Shown: one piece after another, positions 9,334 to 18,302 of the stretch
How positions within the stretch are numbered: the stretch's first letter is position 1
How the letters are laid out: each line of letters starts with the position of its first letter
Virus genome (UHGV): UHGV-0152227
Direction: 5' to 3' (one strand)
DNA length: 43,955 nt
DNA from: a virus
Translations under genes and position numbers: made by a program
The notes under the pieces: generated by a model
What the model was told of the DNA's origin: nothing
The model's database searches: none
Seen by the model: the letters and a program-made list of their open reading frames with translations, nothing else

Positions 9334-9513
9334 ATGCGAAACGAAAAATTGCAGATGCGTAGAGCGCAAGCTGCCGCAAGACGTTCTTTCAATGGAAGCG
9401 TAGAGTACGTAAAAGTTACTATGACAAAAGATCACGCAAGTCGCGTATCCCGCGCTTTCTTTGATTCTCGTAACAATAAGGAAAATTATGAGTTCGTCTG
9501 CGTCGCAGAATGA
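9334..9513 (+). CDS. Small basic protein (59 aa), candidate antitoxin or regulator, upstream gene of a two-gene cassette
   Basis: ATG 9334 with GAGG RBS 6 nt upstream; overlaps downstream gene by 26 nt; contains that gene's RBS; below the ORF-track size cutoff. Confidence 0.5.
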   Translation: MRNEKLQMRRAQAAARRSFNGSVEYVKVTMTKDHASRVSRAFFDSRNNKENYEFVCVAE

Positions 9514-10033
9514 TAAAAATCAAATTGTCAGATATAAGGGTCGAGTATTGCATACGCAAAATTTCTCGGCCCTTTGTGCATCTGATCTTGAGCTGAAGAA
9601 AGTATCTGATGCCTTTACCCAGTATTGGAAAACGGGATACCATCCATCTCTTGGTAAAGATGCTGCATTTGCTCGTCCGACAGAAATGCTTAAACTAAAT
9701 GTCAGGCATACTCATGTCGATAACCAAGACTATATTCCAGAAGATAGTGATAAAAAACACACTGGTAAAAAATCATCTTGGGATGCATGGAAAAATATAG
9801 CGTCTGTGCAAGTAAAATGCATACCAACAAGTGATTGCTTTTTAGTTTATTCGGTAAATCACAATCGTGATGCGCTGGTTATGTTTTTTGTTGACGCAGA
9901 TGCCCACAACATAACTGAGCAAGAAGAGTTTAAAGAGGCAGCAATCACTATCAGTTATCAATTCTTTCAGAAAACAAAAACAGAACCAATGCCTTTAGAA
10001 GAAGATCTTTTTTCTGATAAATGGAAGGAATAA
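9488..10033 (+). CDS. Candidate toxin, distant resemblance to YafO-type mRNA interferases (tentative)
   Basis: ATG 9488 with AAGGA RBS; AT-rich; recalled YafO-like motifs (F-x2-Y-x3-G-x2-P-x2-G-[KR]-D-A, V-x-H-x-H, LVY...A-hydrophobic run); followed by strong terminator. Confidence 0.45.
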   Translation: MSSSASQNDKNQIVRYKGRVLHTQNFSALCASDLELKKVSDAFTQYWKTGYHPSLGKDAAFARPTEMLKLNVRHTHVDNQDYIPEDSDKKHTGKKSSWDAWKNIASVQVKCIPTSDCFLVYSVNHNRDALVMFFVDADAHNITEQEEFKEAAITISYQFFQKTKTEPMPLEEDLFSDKWKE

Positions 10034-10055
10034 GCCCGCGTTGCGGGCTTTTTTG
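10034..10055 (+). terminator. Rho-independent terminator
   Basis: GCCCGC-gttg-CGGGC followed by TTTTTTG. Confidence 0.8.
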
Positions 10056-10126
10056 TGGACGAAACAAAAGTCAGTGCTACACTCATTGACGCCACATTGA
10101 GGTGGCTTATAGATGGAAATTTCACA

Positions 10127-10288
10127 ATGAAAAAAGCATTTGCTGCACTGTTCGTTTTGTTGTCTCTGGTAGCTTCAACTCAGGCCTTTGCCGGTCGTTG
10201 TCAGCACGACAGCGATACTGCCGCTGACGGCTCCCGCTGCGGTGGGCGTTCTGCGGATTCCCGCCCTGGCGGCGGTGGCATTCGTTAA
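10127..10288 (+). CDS. Small secreted peptide (signal peptide plus ~31-aa Cys/Gly/Asp-rich mature part)
   Basis: ATG 10127; MKKAFAALFVLLSLVASTQAFA signal-like N-terminus; flanked by terminators; weak RBS. Confidence 0.45.
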   Translation: MKKAFAALFVLLSLVASTQAFAGRCQHDSDTAADGSRCGGRSADSRPGGGGIR

Positions 10289-10294
10289 AAACAA

Positions 10295-10310
10295 GGCCGC
10301 GAAAGCGGCC
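10295..10310. terminator. Hairpin GGCCGC-gaaa-GCGGCC; terminator for the minus-strand late operon, possibly bidirectional
   Basis: Perfect 6-bp stem; T-run on the minus strand (complement of AAAAACAA). Confidence 0.55.
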
Positions 10311-10311
10311 T

Positions 10312-10323
10312 GTGACATGTCAC
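10312..10323. repeat. 12-bp perfect palindrome GTGACATGTCAC, copy 1 of 3
   Basis: Exact match to copies at 27684-27695 and 29949-29960; lies 1 nt downstream of the stop of gene 10325-10885. Confidence 0.9.
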
Positions 10324-10324
10324 A

Positions 10325-10885
10325 CTACATTGATATATGATTCATAAAGTAGCTTAAAGATTTACTTCCCAGAAAAGAAATTTCTTTTCCTGGATATGTC
10401 GCAATAATTGAGCATGACTTATCCCCGTTAGAGGTAACAAATCCTGAATAACCTACTTGTTCTTTACCATTTTGTTGCTTGGCTAAAAAGTAGAGGTAGC
10501 TTATCTTTTTGCCCTCTGGGTAAAACTCTGCCAAACCAGTATCGGTGATTGAATATTTTATTCTCCCGCCTTGAGTAACGTTTTCCATCTCAAGTTTAGC
10601 TATGTCTTTTCTGTTGTATTCAGCATTGATTTTCCTTTCGAAATCAATGTTGTTTTCAAATGAGTAGGAAGCAACAGTCTGAATAGATGGGAACACGTTT
10701 ATCTGGATGCCTCCACAGTCGGCACAGGTATAAAGGTATGAATCAGATGGAATCCCCATAAAAGAAAACTGAGTTACCTTAAATTTATCGCTATCTCCAA
10801 AGTATTGAAGTTCGCATTTAACATTTTGCCCTGCAAAAGAAAATGCAGACATCAATATTGAAACAAAAAATATAATTGCCTTCAT
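10325..10885 (-). CDS. Secreted protein of unknown function, last gene of the late operon (possible moron or exclusion factor)
   Basis: N-terminal signal peptide MKAIIFFVSILMSAFSFA; AT-rich; abuts stop of upstream virion gene. Confidence 0.6.
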   Translation of the reverse strand: MKAIIFFVSILMSAFSFAGQNVKCELQYFGDSDKFKVTQFSFMGIPSDSYLYTCADCGGIQINVFPSIQTVASYSFENNIDFERKINAEYNRKDIAKLEMENVTQGGRIKYSITDTGLAEFYPEGKKISYLYFLAKQQNGKEQVGYSGFVTSNGDKSCSIIATYPGKEISFLGSKSLSYFMNHISM

Positions 10886-10887
10886 TA

Positions 10888-13440
10888 TTATTTACCTAGC
10901 ATGAACTGCGATGGTGGGATCAGAAAGTCGTTACCCTGCTCACGCTCAACACGGCGCTGATAACGCTCAAGAGAGCCTGGGTCAAGGGCATCTTGTATCC
11001 GGTTCAATATTAAACCATTCATCGCCGTACGAAGCCAGAACACGTTGAGGAATGGCGTATTGTCAAGTGCCGTGCGATACCAGTCACCCAAATCTGCATC
11101 CCCTCTCGTGGTCTGCTGGAGCAGCGTGATAATGCTGTCAGCGTTCGATGCTGCTGGCCCCATTAGCGACGTAACCGGCCCGGCCCCCATGCGGTTGACC
11201 TCGCCAAACATGAAGTCACCCAAGATGCCAAGACCGCCCCCCTGAGATGCGGCTGCGAGAAACGTCTTGGCATCTGCCGGGCGTGGTGTTTGCCCTTTCA
11301 GCATGAGTTTTGACTGCATGGAGATATAACCAAACATAGTCGCCCAGACAAAGAGGTTTGCAGCACCAAGGAAAGCCCCCTTCCCGTTACGTAGCAGCGC
11401 ATTCGTCAGCGATCCGGTTTTCGACTCACCAAGCCCAGCAGGAATATAACCACGCCCGAATACTTCGCGTCCTAGTACGTTCTGCATGAAGCTTGCAGTG
11501 AACGATTTGTACTGACCAGCGAATCGTATTGCTTCCCCAGCCACCGTTCCTGGCACCGTGCCCATCTTCATAAACGCCTGCGTGCGATCGCCAGGCTCTG
11601 ACATGGCGATATTCAGGCGGTCAAGGATGTAGCCGCGCAACTGCCCTTCCAATTGATCGCGTGCGTCAGCGATAGCGCGCTGCGTTGGTTTGATCCCCTT
11701 ACTCTCTACATAACCGGCAATCACTTCGTCAGGCACGCCGCGGATGCCGCTGGTCGTCATGAACTTACGACCTTCGCTATCGGCCATGTCCATGTTGCGA
11801 AAAATTTCCCACTCACGTTCGCCAATACCGTGCAGATCCAGCACGCGTCGCAGGTCTTCCGGTAGCCGCGCATGAGACTGGTCAGCATTCTTTGCAAGCC
11901 AGTTGGTTATCATCATGGCGTTGCTGTTGCGACCGCTCTCGGTCCAGAAGTTCATGAGGTTGTACTTAAAGAAAAGCTGCTGCGCGCGACCAAGCTTTCC
12001 ATTCAGCGTGTCATCACCAGATATGCGCCGGATGATTTCCTGCGTCATGGAGTCGGAATAAACTCCGATAGAGGAAAGGATCTCTTTCTGCTCCGCGCTG
12101 TTGTAACGCGTGAAGCGGCCTCTCATAGCACCAAGCAACGCCTGCATAAAATTCTGCCCTTGGTAGCGCATCTCGGTAGCGGCGATAGGCACGTCGTTAA
12201 ACGATGAGATTACCGCGCCACCAAGTTGGCTCATACGCAACCAGCCGCGTACAGCCGCCGACGCATTGGCCCAGCCTACGCTGCCAGGAATATTTAGCGA
12301 GCCGTCAACCTGCGGCATTACGGTACGGTTAATGCGACGCACCTTCGTCATGTAGTCAGCCAACGCTGCCGGTCTTCCGGATTTGCTGATATCTTCAGCA
12401 ATGGCGTCCGTCAGGTACTTAAACATGTTCTGTGGGTTAGTGCCCAGTACGCGCATCATGCCCGTTGTGCGGGCAGCGCTGTTTAAGCCACCAAACAGCG
12501 CTTCTCGCAGGCTGCCGGTGCCGAATTGCTGGTTGTACTCGTGCCACGAGATACCATCTTTGAAGTGCAAAATTCGCTCTTGGCTGGCGCGTTTAGCTGC
12601 GTTCGCCGATCCCTTAAAGCCATTCATCCAATCGGGCTTTTCAGATGTAAGATGCACGCCGGAAGCCAGCCCGTTATAAATGTTACGCGTGAACTGCTCG
12701 CGGTCAGCCACGCCGTCAAAAGTGCGCTCATCAAGGCGCGGGAGAATAGCATTTCGCCATGCTTCATAACCTGCGGCGCGGATCTTCATGATGTCGTGTG
12801 ACTGGCGCACTATATAGCCCGGCTCTTTGCGTATCCATGCCCCGGCGCGGTTCTCATCAATGCGCGCAGTTTCCTGCCATTTCATGATGATTTGTGCAGC
12901 GCTTACGGATTGCTTTGTCATACCGTCAGTTGACTGCCCGCGCCCTATGCGCCACATTGCATCGGCAATTTCCCGGTCATTGCTGCCGCTGGCGATGAAT
13001 TGCACCAGCCCGGCACGGTCAAAATCGTAGTTGATACCGGAATGATACTTGCCGCGCAGTTGCGCCACCTCCGAAGATACCGACCGGCGGGCGCCGGTAC
13101 GCGCATCGTTGCGGCCAACCAGCATTGCTTCAAGCCCGATATCCGGGCGGTCTTTCCAGATAGTACGAAGCTCTCTAAGTCGTTGTGCGGCAATACGGGC
13201 GTTGATTGCCTTATTGCGAGCCTCAATCTGTTTTGCCAGCATATCGGCATTGCTCAGTTCTTCCGCTGCGCGCATCGCGGCCTCTTCCAGAGACAGCGCC
13301 TCATTGGTCGCCAGAATTCGCCTAGTGGTGTCGTTCATGTCACGCACCAGCGACTCCATCTCATCGGAAGAAAGCTCGCGACCAGCGGCAGCATTTACAC
13401 TGCGCTCGCACTGCGTCAAAAATTCGTTTGCTGCCATCAC
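10888..13440 (-). CDS. Large virion protein (internal/ejection or tail-associated), 850 aa
   Basis: Long ORF in structural operon, translationally coupled to neighbours; no recognisable enzymatic motif. Confidence 0.6.
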   Translation of the reverse strand: MMAANEFLTQCERSVNAAAGRELSSDEMESLVRDMNDTTRRILATNEALSLEEAAMRAAEELSNADMLAKQIEARNKAINARIAAQRLRELRTIWKDRPDIGLEAMLVGRNDARTGARRSVSSEVAQLRGKYHSGINYDFDRAGLVQFIASGSNDREIADAMWRIGRGQSTDGMTKQSVSAAQIIMKWQETARIDENRAGAWIRKEPGYIVRQSHDIMKIRAAGYEAWRNAILPRLDERTFDGVADREQFTRNIYNGLASGVHLTSEKPDWMNGFKGSANAAKRASQERILHFKDGISWHEYNQQFGTGSLREALFGGLNSAARTTGMMRVLGTNPQNMFKYLTDAIAEDISKSGRPAALADYMTKVRRINRTVMPQVDGSLNIPGSVGWANASAAVRGWLRMSQLGGAVISSFNDVPIAATEMRYQGQNFMQALLGAMRGRFTRYNSAEQKEILSSIGVYSDSMTQEIIRRISGDDTLNGKLGRAQQLFFKYNLMNFWTESGRNSNAMMITNWLAKNADQSHARLPEDLRRVLDLHGIGEREWEIFRNMDMADSEGRKFMTTSGIRGVPDEVIAGYVESKGIKPTQRAIADARDQLEGQLRGYILDRLNIAMSEPGDRTQAFMKMGTVPGTVAGEAIRFAGQYKSFTASFMQNVLGREVFGRGYIPAGLGESKTGSLTNALLRNGKGAFLGAANLFVWATMFGYISMQSKLMLKGQTPRPADAKTFLAAASQGGGLGILGDFMFGEVNRMGAGPVTSLMGPAASNADSIITLLQQTTRGDADLGDWYRTALDNTPFLNVFWLRTAMNGLILNRIQDALDPGSLERYQRRVEREQGNDFLIPPSQFMLGK

Positions 13441-15134
13441 ATCCCCCGGTTAATCATACAGGCGGCAAATGCCCGGAAAGCGTTGCTCATGCTATTGTCG
13501 CTGGCGTCGGCACGAATATCATTGAGTTTCTGGCGCAACGTGGTCGCAAGATCAGGGTTATCGACAGCGATATCGTCAAGCAGGGCGTTACTCAGGTTGA
13601 GCTCGTTATCAAGGTCTGCAGCGGCAGCGGTAATTTCATGATCTGCCTTTTGCGTTTCTTGATAAACCCGATCGGCTGTTTCGCTTGCTGGGCGAGCCGT
13701 TTCATCAACCTGCCGTGCCGGGTTCTGTATGCGATGGATGGCGCGTTCACGCAGTGCCGGTTTGTGCAGTTCATAGAAGGGCTCAACATCTGGGCTACGT
13801 CCTTCCATCATGTGTGCCAGCGCAGCGCGATACGCCTGCTGGTTCACGTTCCAGTCAGCATCCCTGATGGCGCTTGCGGCAGTGCGAACTGCGCCAGCGA
13901 CCGGCGACATCTGCATGCCGTCCAGGATCTGCTGCGCACGCTCGGAAATGGTGACTTTCAGGTCGTCTGGGATCTCACCGCGGGAAATCTGAGACTGGCG
14001 CCAGCGCGCCTGCTCTGCTGTCGCGTTCTGCTCCAGCGATGTGTTGATCTCCTGATTGCGTGCAGCGATGGCGTCTTTCTCGGCCTGAATCTCTTTCAGT
14101 GCCCTAGAGCGCGCATCCTTAAACTTCATCCGCTGCCCCTGATACTTTTTGGTGCGCTGCTGCAGCGTCGCATCAAGCGAGTCAGCATGACGTTGATTAG
14201 CCGCAAGCTCGGCACGCAGGTCGGCAACGTTACCGATCTGACCGCTCTGTAATTCCTGCTGGCGCGCCATATAGTCAGGAACCACGTCGTCATAAGCCCG
14301 GCTGTATGCGTAGCTCTCCGCTTCACTGGAAATGGCCGCCGCCAGATCTGCGTTAGCGCCAACCTCAGGGATATTCACGCCCGCCGGAATGTTGTCAGGC
14401 GTTATCACCGGGGTTGGCTGCGCATCGCCAGAAAACGCCGGGGACTCTCCCGTTGCAGCATCGGGAACGCGACGCGGTCGCACGATATCGGCGATAAGGC
14501 CGCCGCCGGCATGCATTAGACCGCCAGCCATCGTGTTAAAGAAAGTACTTTCCAACGCGTTGCTATAGGTGAAGTCGTCACCTTCCGCCGCCGCTGCCAG
14601 CCCGGTAAGCGGCACGGTCACCACCGCCTGCGCTGCCCCCATGCGTGCACCAGCAACAAATCGCTCGCCAAATCGGCCAAGCACAGAAGCCGCCTTTGCT
14701 TCTCCAGCGAACGGAACCAGCGCCAGCGCCACGTTACCAGGATCTGCCATTGAACCAGCTAGGCTGGCTGCGAAATTAAGCGGCGTGGCTACCCATCCGC
14801 TCGGTGCCGACATCGCGATCTGCTGGCGTGCCAGAGAATCTTTGCGTTCGGCAATAACATGATCGAGAAAAGCCTGCGTAACGCCAGAATCTGGCACGTT
14901 TATGCTCTTTACGCCGTACTGCTTCAGGAGCTCATCCGCTTCCTGCTTACTGATAACTGTAGAGTTTGGGTCATTCGCCAGCGAGTCGGCCTGCGCAAAG
15001 CGGTAGCCGGACATGACCGGCCCCTCTTCAAATCCCTGCTTAAGGGAAGAAAGCAGCGATTCGCCAAGCCCTGCTGGCGCGTTGCCAATTGGCTGGTTAA
15101 TTCCCTGTCCCGGATCATCTGTGTAAATTGGCAT
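13437..15134 (-). CDS. Virion internal protein, 565 aa
   Basis: Position in structural operon; Ala/Gly-rich; overlapping stop/start with neighbours. Confidence 0.6.
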   Translation of the reverse strand: MPIYTDDPGQGINQPIGNAPAGLGESLLSSLKQGFEEGPVMSGYRFAQADSLANDPNSTVISKQEADELLKQYGVKSINVPDSGVTQAFLDHVIAERKDSLARQQIAMSAPSGWVATPLNFAASLAGSMADPGNVALALVPFAGEAKAASVLGRFGERFVAGARMGAAQAVVTVPLTGLAAAAEGDDFTYSNALESTFFNTMAGGLMHAGGGLIADIVRPRRVPDAATGESPAFSGDAQPTPVITPDNIPAGVNIPEVGANADLAAAISSEAESYAYSRAYDDVVPDYMARQQELQSGQIGNVADLRAELAANQRHADSLDATLQQRTKKYQGQRMKFKDARSRALKEIQAEKDAIAARNQEINTSLEQNATAEQARWRQSQISRGEIPDDLKVTISERAQQILDGMQMSPVAGAVRTAASAIRDADWNVNQQAYRAALAHMMEGRSPDVEPFYELHKPALRERAIHRIQNPARQVDETARPASETADRVYQETQKADHEITAAAADLDNELNLSNALLDDIAVDNPDLATTLRQKLNDIRADASDNSMSNAFRAFAACMINRGM

Positions 15135-15135
15135 G

Positions 15136-17757
15136 TTATCGTCCTGATTGCTGGCCGTTCTGGAAAATGTTAATCAGGTTGTCGCGCTGACTTTCTGCGC
15201 TGTATTCCTTAGACTGTCCGGGAGTATATTTCACCGGAGTATCAATGAACTTGGTAATGCTGTTCCATACTGATCGGTTGGTTGTTCCCAGTTTCGCCAG
15301 ATCGTTGAACGGCACCGTAATCGGGTTGCCGTCGGCACCGTTGACGATCAGCCCGTTGAGCATCAGGGTAAGTCCTGTTTCGTCGCTGTTGGTAACCCAC
15401 TGCGCATTATCACGAATGCGGGAGATACTCTGCTCACGGTTGACCTCATCAGGTAGCCTTGGGTCACCAATAAGCGGCATAATCTGATCTGCTGACAGGT
15501 TTTTCAGATACGCATTGGCACCATCGTTAACGTCACGAATATCTATCCCTGCACGATTAGGTAGCCGCCAAGTGCCATTGGTCTGGTACTGCTCGCCGAG
15601 GATGTCCTGATACGCCTGTTTTGCTGCATCAGACGCCGACATTCCGCGCTGCATGTTGATGTAAGTAAGTCGTTTTCCCTGCTCGTTGAAGTTATTCCAC
15701 ACGGCAGTGCCACCAGGCTGAACAACCATCGTGCCAGCAAAATCTTTCGATTGGTCATTCCATGACGAGTCGGCGCTATCCGCGTCGGTTTTCTCAAGAC
15801 TGCCGCGTAAGTCAGCAGTTTTAACGCTACGGTTTTGCCAGAGCGCATTTGCCGCGCGCGGGTTCTCGGTAGCCATGACAACCTGCAACGCAGGATAAGC
15901 GCTCTTCTGAACCTGCTGCATCACCTGATCCGAGTATTTGCCGAACGACTGCGCCACCGACTGAATGGCCTTAACGCTAGATTCCTGCGTGTTGTCAATA
16001 CGCTGCAGTACATCATTGACCATGGACTCCGGTAAAACTTTTTTGCTCATTATCCCCAGGCGGTCTTTTTCAGACTGTATGCGGGAAACTAGGTATTCAC
16101 CAGATGAAGGGTCATTCAGGTACTGCTGGAATGCAGCCTGCACAACCGGAGAGTTTTGTTGCAGCCATGCCCCCGGATCCGCTTCCCGCGCCTTCAGTAC
16201 CTGCCCAAGCTTGACCTTTGCCGATGCATAAAGCTCTGCTTTGTATTTAAAGTCAGGGTCGTTTTCCTGCGGTGCCATTGCCTGCACGGCGGCGGTACCC
16301 TGCTGGACGTTGCCCTGCATAATGGTCTGATAAACAGGTTGTAGCGTCATTGCCTGCTGGTATTGCTGGAAGGTTTTTTCCATCTGCAGGCGCTCGGCAG
16401 GCGCTGCCTGAAGCGGCATAACGGCGGCCCATTCGTGCGCTGAAATAGGCGTCACCTGCTTACCGGCCTCAATTTTGGATAGGTCGTCCTGCATTCGACT
16501 CTGTAGCGCAACGCGACCGGCTGAAGCCTGCATGTCGTACATGCCAGCAACCTTGCTCATCATCTGCGACTTTTTGTCCGGACTCATGGCGTTCCAGAAT
16601 GGCTGTGCGATGAGGTTTTCCATCGTCGCAGATCCAGGAATAGCTCCAGCACTGCCAGTTACTTTTGCCACATAATTGCGCGTCTCGTCGTATGGGATAG
16701 CTGCGGCAAACTGGGCGTTACTGACTTCGCCTGTGCGCGGATCGCCAATCTGTTTAATCCAGCCGTCAACCTTTCCTGGGCCAGCGTTATAGGCAGCTAC
16801 TGCCAGAACCGGGTTATTGTCGTATTTCTTCATCTGCGCGCCGAAATAAGCTTGCCCCAAGCGGGCATTATAGCGCGGGTCATTCAACCATTTATCGCGG
16901 TCCCACGGCACGCCAGCAAGGCGGGCAGCTTCGGGGCCAGTATCTTCCGTCACCTGCGCTACGCCAACAGCGCCTTTTGGCGACACCAGAGGTGTTCCGT
17001 CCTTTCCGTACTGATTTCCGCCACTCTCCTGCCAGATTATTGCAGAGAATAACTGCGCCTCACTCGGTGTATCGGTTACCTCAATCTTGCCGTTCGGACC
17101 CATCATCTGTTGATACATCGGCACATACCACGCCTCCGCCGCACCGTTCGCGGCATTCTCGCGCCACGAAACCCAGTTCTGTTCGATCTCTTCCTGACTC
17201 TGGCCGTGGGCTTCGCCGTAAGCGATGATGCTATGATATGCCTTCAATCCTGCCTGGTTTGCCATTGTCGGGTTACGGAACTGCATCGATAGGTTTTTTA
17301 GTGTCGCATCCTGCATATCCGCCTCATACTGGCGAACCTGTCCTATTTCGTACCTCCCGGCCTGCGTAGTGAACTGAATGCGCTGCTGCTGCGCCTGCTG
17401 CATGAAAGCATTACGAGCCTGTTCATCCGGCAGCGACATAGCCAGTTGTTCGACCTGAGCATCAAACTGCTGCGTATACTCCTGACCTTTTCCAATAGCA
17501 TTTTTCCCTTTCAGGTTAAGCAATCCTGTTTCAGGATTATTCAGCAGATCACTGCTTATCTGACTGAGGTTAAGAGATGCCTCCTGAGCCAGAGCGATAT
17601 TGGCACGCTGTTTTGCCTGACCAAAAACATCAATTGCCTCTGTCCCTGCCCGAACAAAAGCATCACCAATACCTGGCTGAGAAAACGTCTGCAAGCCTGC
17701 TGACTGAACTCCACGGCTCTGAACCTGACGGCCGGATACTGTTGGTACGACTGGCAT
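15136..17757 (-). CDS. Internal virion protein with lytic transglycosylase (SLT) domain
   Basis: SLT motifs AIIWQESGGNQYG ... AAYNAGPGKV; ATG at 17757 with GGAGG RBS (ORF-track start at 17832 is upstream read-through). Confidence 0.75.
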   Translation of the reverse strand: MPVVPTVSGRQVQSRGVQSAGLQTFSQPGIGDAFVRAGTEAIDVFGQAKQRANIALAQEASLNLSQISSDLLNNPETGLLNLKGKNAIGKGQEYTQQFDAQVEQLAMSLPDEQARNAFMQQAQQQRIQFTTQAGRYEIGQVRQYEADMQDATLKNLSMQFRNPTMANQAGLKAYHSIIAYGEAHGQSQEEIEQNWVSWRENAANGAAEAWYVPMYQQMMGPNGKIEVTDTPSEAQLFSAIIWQESGGNQYGKDGTPLVSPKGAVGVAQVTEDTGPEAARLAGVPWDRDKWLNDPRYNARLGQAYFGAQMKKYDNNPVLAVAAYNAGPGKVDGWIKQIGDPRTGEVSNAQFAAAIPYDETRNYVAKVTGSAGAIPGSATMENLIAQPFWNAMSPDKKSQMMSKVAGMYDMQASAGRVALQSRMQDDLSKIEAGKQVTPISAHEWAAVMPLQAAPAERLQMEKTFQQYQQAMTLQPVYQTIMQGNVQQGTAAVQAMAPQENDPDFKYKAELYASAKVKLGQVLKAREADPGAWLQQNSPVVQAAFQQYLNDPSSGEYLVSRIQSEKDRLGIMSKKVLPESMVNDVLQRIDNTQESSVKAIQSVAQSFGKYSDQVMQQVQKSAYPALQVVMATENPRAANALWQNRSVKTADLRGSLEKTDADSADSSWNDQSKDFAGTMVVQPGGTAVWNNFNEQGKRLTYINMQRGMSASDAAKQAYQDILGEQYQTNGTWRLPNRAGIDIRDVNDGANAYLKNLSADQIMPLIGDPRLPDEVNREQSISRIRDNAQWVTNSDETGLTLMLNGLIVNGADGNPITVPFNDLAKLGTTNRSVWNSITKFIDTPVKYTPGQSKEYSAESQRDNLINIFQNGQQSGR

Positions 17758-18302
17758 TATAATCCTCCGGGTAATCTGGTTCCTGCTGCTGCCCCGATTG
17801 GCGCAGGGGTGCTTTGAGTAAACGGACTCCACGTCCCACCAAACATCTGGTACGCACCGTATGCCTTCAGAGGCGCAGTGAGCAATGTTGTTGCTGCTCC
17901 CACATTCCCCTGTTTACGGGCTGAACTGGCTTCTGCTTTATAGTTGGCAGCCTGAACCTGATAACCGTAAGCCTCGCGTTGCGCGTTATTCACCGTCGTC
18001 AGAGAATCAAGAGCGCCAAACTGGGCAGTGTCGCCAAATATATCCAGCGCGTTACCTGTAGATAAATCAGCGCCGGTAGCCCCCATTGTCGCCGCCTGTG
18101 TACCAAGCCGCTGTCGGGTCTCTCTGCGCCGTTGCTCAGCTTCAGCGTTACCTCTGTTTATTGCATCATTTGCCTGAGCTGTGGCTATATCTGCGTTCGC
18201 TTCTGCAACCTTCGAGGCATACTTTCCCTGTTGGTACTGGGTGTATGCCTGAATGCCACTCATGGCGAGCATTGCGCCACCAGCAATAACCGGATCGCAC
18301 AT
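17757..18302 (-). CDS. Virion protein, 181 aa (internal core protein candidate)
   Basis: Position between tail tubular and SLT genes; coupled overlaps. Confidence 0.5.
   Translation of the reverse strand: MCDPVIAGGAMLAMSGIQAYTQYQQGKYASKVAEANADIATAQANDAINRGNAEAEQRRRETRQRLGTQAATMGATGADLSTGNALDIFGDTAQFGALDSLTTVNNAQREAYGYQVQAANYKAEASSARKQGNVGAATTLLTAPLKAYGAYQMFGGTWSPFTQSTPAPIGAAAGTRLPGGL

Follow-up and report, generated by a model that had tools for sequence, protein, structure and literature searches.

The window analysed here is the whole of the virus genome UHGV-0152227 (43,955 nucleotides). At positions 10,127 to 10,885 it holds two converging genes for exported products, namely a short plus-strand gene for a precursor of 53 residues, whose product is called the peptide below, and a minus-strand gene for a protein of 186 residues. 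The first-pass annotation had presented them as a secreted moron pair at the end of the late operon. The occurrence of the genes in other genomes indicates that they are not a pair. Their main features are the following:

10127-10288, plus strand: gene of the 53-residue precursor (ATG at 10127, TAA at 10286-10288)
10127-10192, plus strand: signal peptide of the precursor, codons 1-22 (rule-based)
10193-10285, plus strand: mature peptide of 31 residues, GRCQHDSDTAADGSRCGGRSADSRPGGGGIR (rule-based)
10294-10311, both strands: GC hairpin AGGCCGC-GAAA-GCGGCCT, common to the converging genes (-16.5 to -17.9 kcal/mol)
10325-10885, minus strand: gene of the 186-residue exported protein (ATG at 10885, TAG at 10325-10327)
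10885-10832, minus strand: signal peptide of the 186-residue protein, codons 1-18, MKAIIFFVSILMSAFSFA followed by GQ, with the cut predicted after SFA
10888-13440, minus strand: gene of an 850-residue internal or ejection-type virion protein (phrog_684)

Two independent exported gene products

Signal peptides were assessed against the usual sequence rules and by whether the homologues keep them. By rule, both products have the basic n-region, the hydrophobic h-region and the small residues at -3 and -1 that are characteristic of Sec export and cleavage by signal peptidase I, and these signals recurred in every homologue. The earlier view that both products are exported is thereby borne out. 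Neither cleavage site (FSFA/GQ in the 186-residue protein, AFA/GRC in the peptide) contains a lipobox of the form [LVI][ASTVI][GAS]C.

The occurrence of the two genes was counted in 5,426 complete Escherichia coli genomes. The peptide gene was present in 422-435 of these (about 8%) and the gene of the 186-residue protein in 56 (1%), while the two stood side by side in 49. Homologues of the 186-residue protein in Salmonella, Hafnia and Klebsiella michiganensis had no peptide gene as a neighbour. Conversely, the peptide gene faces the Ant gene in phage TL-2011b and other genes in Klebsiella phages, and in Pectobacterium it sits in a prophage of another type. This shows that the two genes are independent and accessory and share only one terminator. 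A functional pair, in which the peptide and the protein would act as ligand and binding protein or as toxin and immunity protein, would agree with their adjacency, their convergence on one terminator, the export of both products and their joint presence in the 49 genomes. The co-occurrence counts refute such a reading, since the genes differ so much in frequency and each occurs alone in several genera. In addition, the identical peptide gene lies opposite at least eight different converging genes, and homologues of the peptide occur in bacteria without any relative of the 186-residue protein. We therefore consider a functional pair to be very improbable. The pairing of the two genes is accidental; the class of function that the first-pass annotation guessed was sensible. 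RefSeq and PHROGs already list the products of both as hypothetical, and at present they are ordinary hypothetical accessory genes that are well delimited.

The peptide gene, its cassette and its family

The N-terminus of the precursor, MKKAFAALFVLLSLVASTQAFA followed by GR, has two lysines (MKK), a hydrophobic core and alanine at -3 and -1 (AFA/G). The mature part is hydrophilic and basic, with two cysteines, an isoelectric point of 8.1 and a grand average of hydropathy of -1.19. The peptide matches phrog_14503 (2e-40) and its RefSeq equivalent is WP_000708858.1. The sole name in use for it, 'transmembrane anchored protein', is ill-suited to a cleaved and hydrophilic product. Synonymous sites of the gene were saturated (proportion of synonymous differences 0.6-0.9, against 0.1-0.2 for non-synonymous ones), which points to strong purifying selection with a dN/dS of about 0.1 or lower. 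Two other readings of the start region were rejected. A longer open reading frame (ORF) of 77 codons from GTG 10055 was discarded because the homologues start at MKK, and an upstream mini-ORF of five codons (ATG 10113) that overlaps the start of the peptide gene because it is not conserved in Klebsiella.

Around the ORF the following elements were recognized:

10032-10050, plus strand: intrinsic terminator, a stem of eight pairs (six of them GC) followed by TTTTTTG (-15 kcal/mol, z = -2.4)
10046-10073, plus strand: putative promoter region of the peptide gene, with a -35-like TGGACG (10046-10051), a 16-nucleotide spacer, TG (10065-10066) and a -10-like TACACT (10068-10073)
10091-10106, plus strand: leader stem-loop GCCAC-ATTGAG-GTGGC, with covariation across 15 divergent enterobacterial loci
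10312-10323, both strands: perfect palindrome of 12 bp, GTGACATGTCAC, flanked by the hairpin and by the stop codon of the gene of the 186-residue protein; identical in phiV10

The terminator at 10032-10050 ends the upstream accessory genes of the plus strand (a YafO-like gene, 9461-10033) and insulates the peptide cassette. The peptide gene had been described as lying between two terminators. This holds for the upstream side, where the terminator is canonical. The hairpin at 10294-10311, which is marked as a terminator in the annotation of phiV10, has a uridine tract on the minus strand (TGTTTTT follows it there) and none on the other. Its main role is accordingly to terminate the late operon, and the peptide gene could at most use it as a bidirectional terminator.

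A -10-like hexamer (TACAAT, TACACT, TACGCT or TATGAT; TACAAT in Klebsiella) was found at a constant distance from the leader hairpin across the divergent enterobacterial loci, with the hairpin starting 5-8 nucleotides downstream of the box and followed by a GGA-type ribosome-binding site. The stem occurs in variants with compensatory changes (GCCAC/GTGGC, GCCGC/GCGGC, CTGC/GCAG and AAATC/GATTT). Over the 15 loci, pairing was found in 85% of the cells, against 25-64% when one side of the stem was slid, and 12 cells showed a double change, against 4.5 in shuffles, none of the 500 shuffles reaching 12. A search of Rfam with the leader region gave only a chance match to a microRNA (E 0.87). Box and hairpin together are probably a promoter followed by a stem-loop at or near the 5' end of the messenger RNA, where the stem-loop may stabilize or regulate the peptide message. 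A scan for consensus promoters made no call at this region. The first promoter reading, TTGACG-N16-TATAGA (10086-10113), was dropped because the alignment places these bases in the covarying hairpin and a conserved -10-like box lies further upstream.

In phiV10 (about 4990-5060, corresponding to 10262-10326 of the window) the peptide gene is reduced to its last 25 or so nucleotides, which are followed by the terminator and the palindrome. This remnant is a deletion scar that marks a conserved recombination boundary, and it argues that the gene moves as a self-contained cassette. The cassette is made up of the upstream terminator, the -10-like box, the stem-loop with its covariation, a weak Shine-Dalgarno site, the ORF itself and the hairpin. 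Its presence and absence are those of a moron, as can be seen from the scar in phiV10, from the relatives in Salmonella, Hafnia and K. michiganensis without the gene and from the different type of prophage that carries it in Pectobacterium. As in the classical morons (lom and bor of lambda, gp15 of HK97), the gene has a promoter-like box, terminators, a patchy presence and a GC content unlike that of its neighbours. The term moron was thus well chosen for this gene, which appears to be self-contained and is variably present and mobile between contexts. It differs from the classical examples in that its family extends beyond phages.

A pattern scan of 185,579 species genomes, one per species, yielded 57 loci with the core of the peptide. 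Beyond the Enterobacterales the carriers included Mesorhizobium, Rhizobium, Agrobacterium, Bradyrhizobium, Devosia, Methylobacterium, Anabaena, Dolichospermum, Nostoc, Bacteriovorax, Vibrio and Polyangiaceae, among others. The core reads C-x5-D-[RT]-A-[AS]-D-G-S-R-C-G-x-R-[AS]-x3-[RK]-P-G-G and usually ends one residue short of the C-terminus. In the enterobacterial alignment 16 columns were invariant, among them C25, D30, A32, G35, S36, R37 and C38; in the wider alignment C25, A32, D34, G35, S36 and C38 were still so. Most members consist of a signal peptide and the core alone. Some homologues from cyanobacteria and Beijerinckiaceae carry a lipobox instead (VTSC, ITSC or LTAC), and longer exported proteins of several cyanobacteria and of Bacteriovorax have the core as their C-terminal module, which in some members follows Gly/Ser linkers. 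When the neighbours of the 57 loci were clustered, no partner gene was conserved outside the enterobacterial prophage context. Neither the single sequence nor the family gave a significant match in Pfam, NCBIfam, PADLOC or the sequences of the PDB. The family is widespread, undescribed and not specific to phages. The Excalibur motif (PF05901), D-R-D-x-D-G-x-x-C-E, has the same Asp, Asp-Gly and Cys spacing as the D-[RT]-A-[AS]-D-G-S-R-C-G of the peptide and is a lead only. Its central Asp is replaced by an invariant Ala in the peptide, and hmmscan of 33 family members at E values up to 10 gave no match to it.

The precursor would be exported by Sec and cut by signal peptidase I after AFA, and DsbA would then close the C-x12-C loop, leaving a hydrophilic periplasmic peptide of 31 residues. 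A general role in the cell envelope is proposed for it because the core is also found outside phages, alone, behind a lipobox or as a C-terminal module. Its most likely target, though at low confidence, would be a ligand that Gram-negative envelopes have in common, for instance a divalent cation or a component of the cell wall, and not a phage-specific one.

It could also be imagined that the peptide is an offensive or host-directed factor, bacteriocin-like or enterotoxin-like, and that its gene is a moron for virulence or competition. Its small size, Sec export and disulfide, its mobile cassette and its presence in pathogenic E. coli lineages, such as that of the O103:H25 phage TL-2011b, would agree with this. 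However, neither an immunity gene nor an export gene stands alongside and no neighbour is conserved, while free-living cyanobacteria and rhizobia have the core in lipoprotein-anchored form or as a C-terminal module, which points to a role in the cell envelope. The cysteine pattern of heat-stable enterotoxins is also unlike that of the peptide. An offensive function is thus distinctly improbable, and an envelope peptide is the reading that we prefer.

The 186-residue protein and the variable position behind the ejection genes

The start codon of the 186-residue protein lies 2 nucleotides past the stop codon of the 850-residue protein, which makes its gene the last one of the late operon, converging on the peptide gene. 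With 35.5% GC, against 55.2% for the adjoining gene, it is AT-rich, as had been noted. The signal peptide is the only strongly hydrophobic segment of the protein. The mature product has 168 residues, with C24, C54, C57 and C158 invariant in all members of the family and a TCxxC motif, and all homologues retain a cleavable signal peptide. Comparison with relatives that are 93-94% identical gave a dN/dS of 0.10-0.13. The family comprises 17-21 clusters in 5.8 billion proteins and eight representative clusters in 1.84 billion. Its members come without exception from Enterobacterales or gut-type metagenomes, and tblastn against 50,697 phage records gave no match.

In every locus examined the gene directly follows a gene for a protein of about 850 residues. 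This was the case in Hafnia, Salmonella, K. michiganensis and metagenomic relatives, down to 35% identity, and also in relatives at 29-36% identity. In K. michiganensis the late operon continues beyond the homologue, which has the ejection protein gene on one side and the tailspike gene on the other. Identities to relatives were 66, 35 and 36% for the 186-residue protein and 87, 62 and 51% for the neighbouring gene, and in every lineage compared its gene was 13-19 GC points below that neighbour. This pattern indicates a single acquisition, after which the gene was retained with the ejection protein gene and evolved faster than it. Pseudomonas phage Ab31 and Stenotrophomonas phage BUCT708, which have the same structural module, lack the gene.

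The likeness to the classical morons is in this case partial. A deviant GC content and a patchy presence are shared with them, the low GC being repeated in three other lineages. In contrast to them, neither a promoter nor a terminator belonging to the gene alone was detected, as it follows its neighbour at 2 nucleotides and uses the terminator of the operon, and it is inherited vertically with that neighbour.

The position itself is variable. It was surveyed in 55 viral contigs (IMG/VR) that carry the identical peptide gene. At least eight unrelated classes of converging gene were distinguished there, most of them for membrane or exported proteins. Besides Ant, the occupants included:

a 46-residue protein with two transmembrane helices (phiV10p21)
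a 98-residue multi-pass membrane protein, about 195 nucleotides downstream of the ejection gene, with a 57-residue ORF between them
a 137-residue lipoprotein
a 283-residue secreted, Cys-rich protein
a 152-residue or 204-residue cytoplasmic protein
the 186-residue protein

With the exception of the 98-residue membrane protein, the occupants start 2-12 nucleotides after a gene for a protein of 824, 850 or about 1010 residues. Of the six classes other than Ant that were looked at more closely, five each belong to a different PHROG of unknown function and the sixth is the family of the 186-residue protein. The phiV10-type ejection protein of 824 residues (96-99% identical) was followed by three different genes. 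In these prophages the ejection protein genes are thus succeeded by a variable gene, by Arc/Ant or Bro genes and by the tailspike gene. On the map of P22, sieA lies between gene 16 and the mnt/arc/ant region. The two layouts appear to correspond, as sieA also follows ejection protein genes. The variety of unrelated occupants and the equivalent position of sieA support the view that this position is a hot spot for envelope-targeted accessory genes. The superinfection-exclusion or host-interaction role that the earlier remark gave to secreted prophage proteins here is a putative one.

With four distant homologues added to the alignment, AlphaFold2 gave a model of the 186-residue protein with a mean predicted local distance difference test (pLDDT) of 83.4 and a predicted template modelling score of 0.79; the 14-sequence alignment alone gave a pLDDT of 44. 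Residues 1-20 had low pLDDT. The model is an alpha-beta-alpha sandwich of the Mog1/PsbP-like type, a fold common to DcrB, the Eag chaperones, TplEi, Tsi3 and PA3488, and the best matches in a library of viral structures were phage lipoproteins. The predicted fold is that of a protein-binding scaffold, which in the periplasm often holds or neutralizes a partner. Sequence homology of the 186-residue protein to the Mog1/PsbP-like proteins (DcrB; SciW and EagT6 of DUF1795; TplEi/Tli4, Tsi3 and PA3488) was undetectable. It also differs from the Eag chaperones, which are cytoplasmic, and from DcrB, which is a lipoprotein, and the four cysteines with the TCxxC motif are specific to its own family.

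We tentatively propose that the 186-residue protein is a superinfection exclusion factor that blocks the DNA entry of phages of its own type. This is favoured by the export signal and the predicted binding fold, by the nature of the variable position and because the gene is strictly linked to the ejection gene and has diverged together with it. The gene would be translated by apparent coupling to the last internal or ejection protein gene. Its product would be soluble in the periplasm, probably disulfide-bonded, and would bind by its Mog1/PsbP-like fold to a periplasm-exposed part of the trans-envelope ejection apparatus of an incoming phage of the same type. Candidate targets are the 850-residue, the 565-residue and the 898-residue SLT-domain proteins. 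Binding would stop DNA entry, either as a soluble counterpart of P22 SieA or by inhibition of a peptidoglycan-cleaving enzyme (muramidase) in the manner of Tsi3. The explanation as a whole, with two independent accessory genes of which one encodes an envelope peptide and the other an entry-blocking protein, is in our opinion quite possible, although we would not call it probable.

SieA of P22 interferes with DNA delivery at the envelope, and the mutations by which phages escape it lie in ejection proteins (PMC10883804). The 186-residue protein shares with it the setting, an accessory region of a temperate podovirus after the ejection protein genes and near mnt/arc/ant-type genes and the tailspike gene. 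The two differ in that SieA is a multi-pass inner-membrane protein, expressed in the lysogen from its own promoter, whereas the 186-residue protein is predicted to be soluble in the periplasm, has no hydrophobic segment other than the signal peptide, shows no sequence similarity to SieA and has no promoter that could be found. The receptor blockers of the T5 Llp and Cor type are also small exported phage proteins that stop superinfection from the periplasmic side, with genes beside the entry apparatus. Llp is a lipoprotein of 61 residues, unlike the 186-residue protein without lipobox. A faint likeness to Llp was seen over some 60 N-terminal residues (KCE-x2-Y-x2-D-x2-K-x-K-x3-F). It scored E 0.24 with a PDB profile, 1e-4 in pairwise BLASTP, 53% in hhalign and 2/2000 in shuffles. 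It did not reach significance at the scale of a database, was absent in four distant members and is probably due to chance.

A number of points weigh against the explanation that we prefer. TM-scores of the model to solved members of the fold were modest (0.4-0.5), and the predicted fold is a generic binding scaffold. No significant match to the 186-residue protein or its family was found in Pfam (18 members, E up to 10), NCBIfam, PADLOC or the sequences of the PDB. The exclusion proteins known from comparable positions sit in the membrane or are lipoproteins, and none is a soluble periplasmic protein. Neither a consensus scan nor manual reading detected a sigma-70-like promoter site on the minus strand upstream of the gene, so the protein may be made only late in lytic growth, which would be odd timing for an exclusion factor. 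The ligand proposed for the peptide is a guess from the conserved Asp/Gly/Arg pattern and the distribution of the module. Finally, the literature searched contained no paper that names either protein and no specific one on the DGSRCG motif or on exclusion by Uetakevirus.

Three other functions of the 186-residue protein were considered. It might be an orphan immunity protein or inhibitor that shields the cell envelope, not from phage entry but from outside enzymes such as effectors of the type VI secretion system, colicin-type toxins or lysozyme-type hydrolases, and the fold that it is predicted to share with Tsi3 and TplEi would suit such a role. However, it is related in sequence to no immunity family, no effector gene is nearby and its neighbours are phage structural or accessory genes in all loci. 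Moreover, it is always tied to one ejection protein gene and not to type VI secretion loci, and a promoter for the lysogenic state was not found. We judge this to be improbable. The second possibility is an action late in the lytic cycle, in which the protein would regulate lysis or envelope breakdown or would guard progeny virions from ejecting their DNA into debris. The terminal place of the gene in the late operon, the gap of 2 nucleotides and the lack of a detected promoter agree with it, as does its location between the ejection gene and the tailspike gene inside the late operon of K. michiganensis. Against this stand the lysis cassette, which is about 7 kb away, and the close structural relatives such as Ab31 that do without the gene. 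The unrelated proteins at the same position in sister prophages are also easier to reconcile with an accessory gene that can be dispensed with than with a core lytic function. A late lytic role is accordingly of low probability. That the protein is a structural component of the virion, as its place right after the internal protein genes of the late structural operon might suggest, is hardly credible because a cleavable signal peptide is conserved in every homologue whereas virions of tailed phages are assembled in the cytoplasm, and the gene is missing from the nearest isolated phages with the same structural module and had no tblastn match among the phage records.

If superinfection exclusion is retained as the preferred function, the observations can be joined into one further-reaching proposal. 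The variable position would be a diversity hot spot for entry-blocking genes, the 186-residue protein a new soluble periplasmic exclusion factor that captures ejection proteins by an Eag- or Tsi-style surface, and the 53-residue gene the carrier of a mini-domain of about 25 residues, not described before, that forms a disulfide loop, occurs across Proteobacteria and cyanobacteria and was adopted by phages as a moron. In this full form we consider the proposal unlikely. Should the occupants of the position indeed block entry, they would provide a ready list of uncharacterized exclusion genes for common prophages of E. coli, Salmonella and Klebsiella. This would bear on the choice of phages for therapy and on how ejection proteins traverse the envelope. 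The peptide, found in about one twelfth of the complete E. coli genomes, is one of a family of small exported proteins that is sharply conserved and reaches into distant phyla, and small proteins of this kind are often overlooked in annotation. New in the present analysis are the unexpected breadth of the peptide family and the way its cassette is built, as well as the predicted fold of the 186-residue protein, its strict linkage to the ejection gene and the variable position.

Prophage setting and neighbouring genes

The window starts in the E. coli chromosome (yfgH and yfgI), and the remainder is a prophage of the epsilon15/phiV10 (Uetakevirus-like) podovirus type. E. coli EC17CM13 is annotated with the same layout of a lysis cassette, a tailspike gene, a small accessory region and then the late operon, in which a T7 gp14-like protein, a protein with an SLT domain and large internal proteins are encoded. 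Pfam matches in the window were to the SLT domain (898-residue protein), a Bro-N protein, a YafO-like protein and the S74 chaperone domain (923-residue tailspike). The lysis cassette consists of two holins, a GH19 endolysin and a DUF2514 protein. The accessory DNA at 9400-10323 is 98.6% identical to that of phage TL-2011b. In contrast, the structural module (10888-17832) has 45-49% identity to the closest isolated phages, BUCT708 and Ab31, and about 23% to its phiV10 counterpart. The nearest relatives of the 850-residue protein among the 50,697 phage records were those of BUCT708 (49%) and Ab31 (45%), and none exceeded 49% identity. The prophage lineage thus appears to be a mosaic without a cultured representative in the phage collection searched.

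Two neighbouring regions may be mentioned. In the region 9334-10033 the YafO-toxin-like gene was barely past the cut-off of Pfam (1.2e-5). A 59-residue ORF that matches no family overlaps its start side, and the two may form a toxin-antitoxin pair. In EC17CM13 a hypothetical gene of 272 residues replaces the YafO-like gene. Between the lysis cassette and the tailspike gene lies a plus-strand gene of 283 residues (3979-4830, about 36% GC), the product of which has a weak, sub-threshold match to the hexapeptide-repeat (acyltransferase-type) motif. It may be a conversion gene that modifies the O-antigen, like oac of phiV10.

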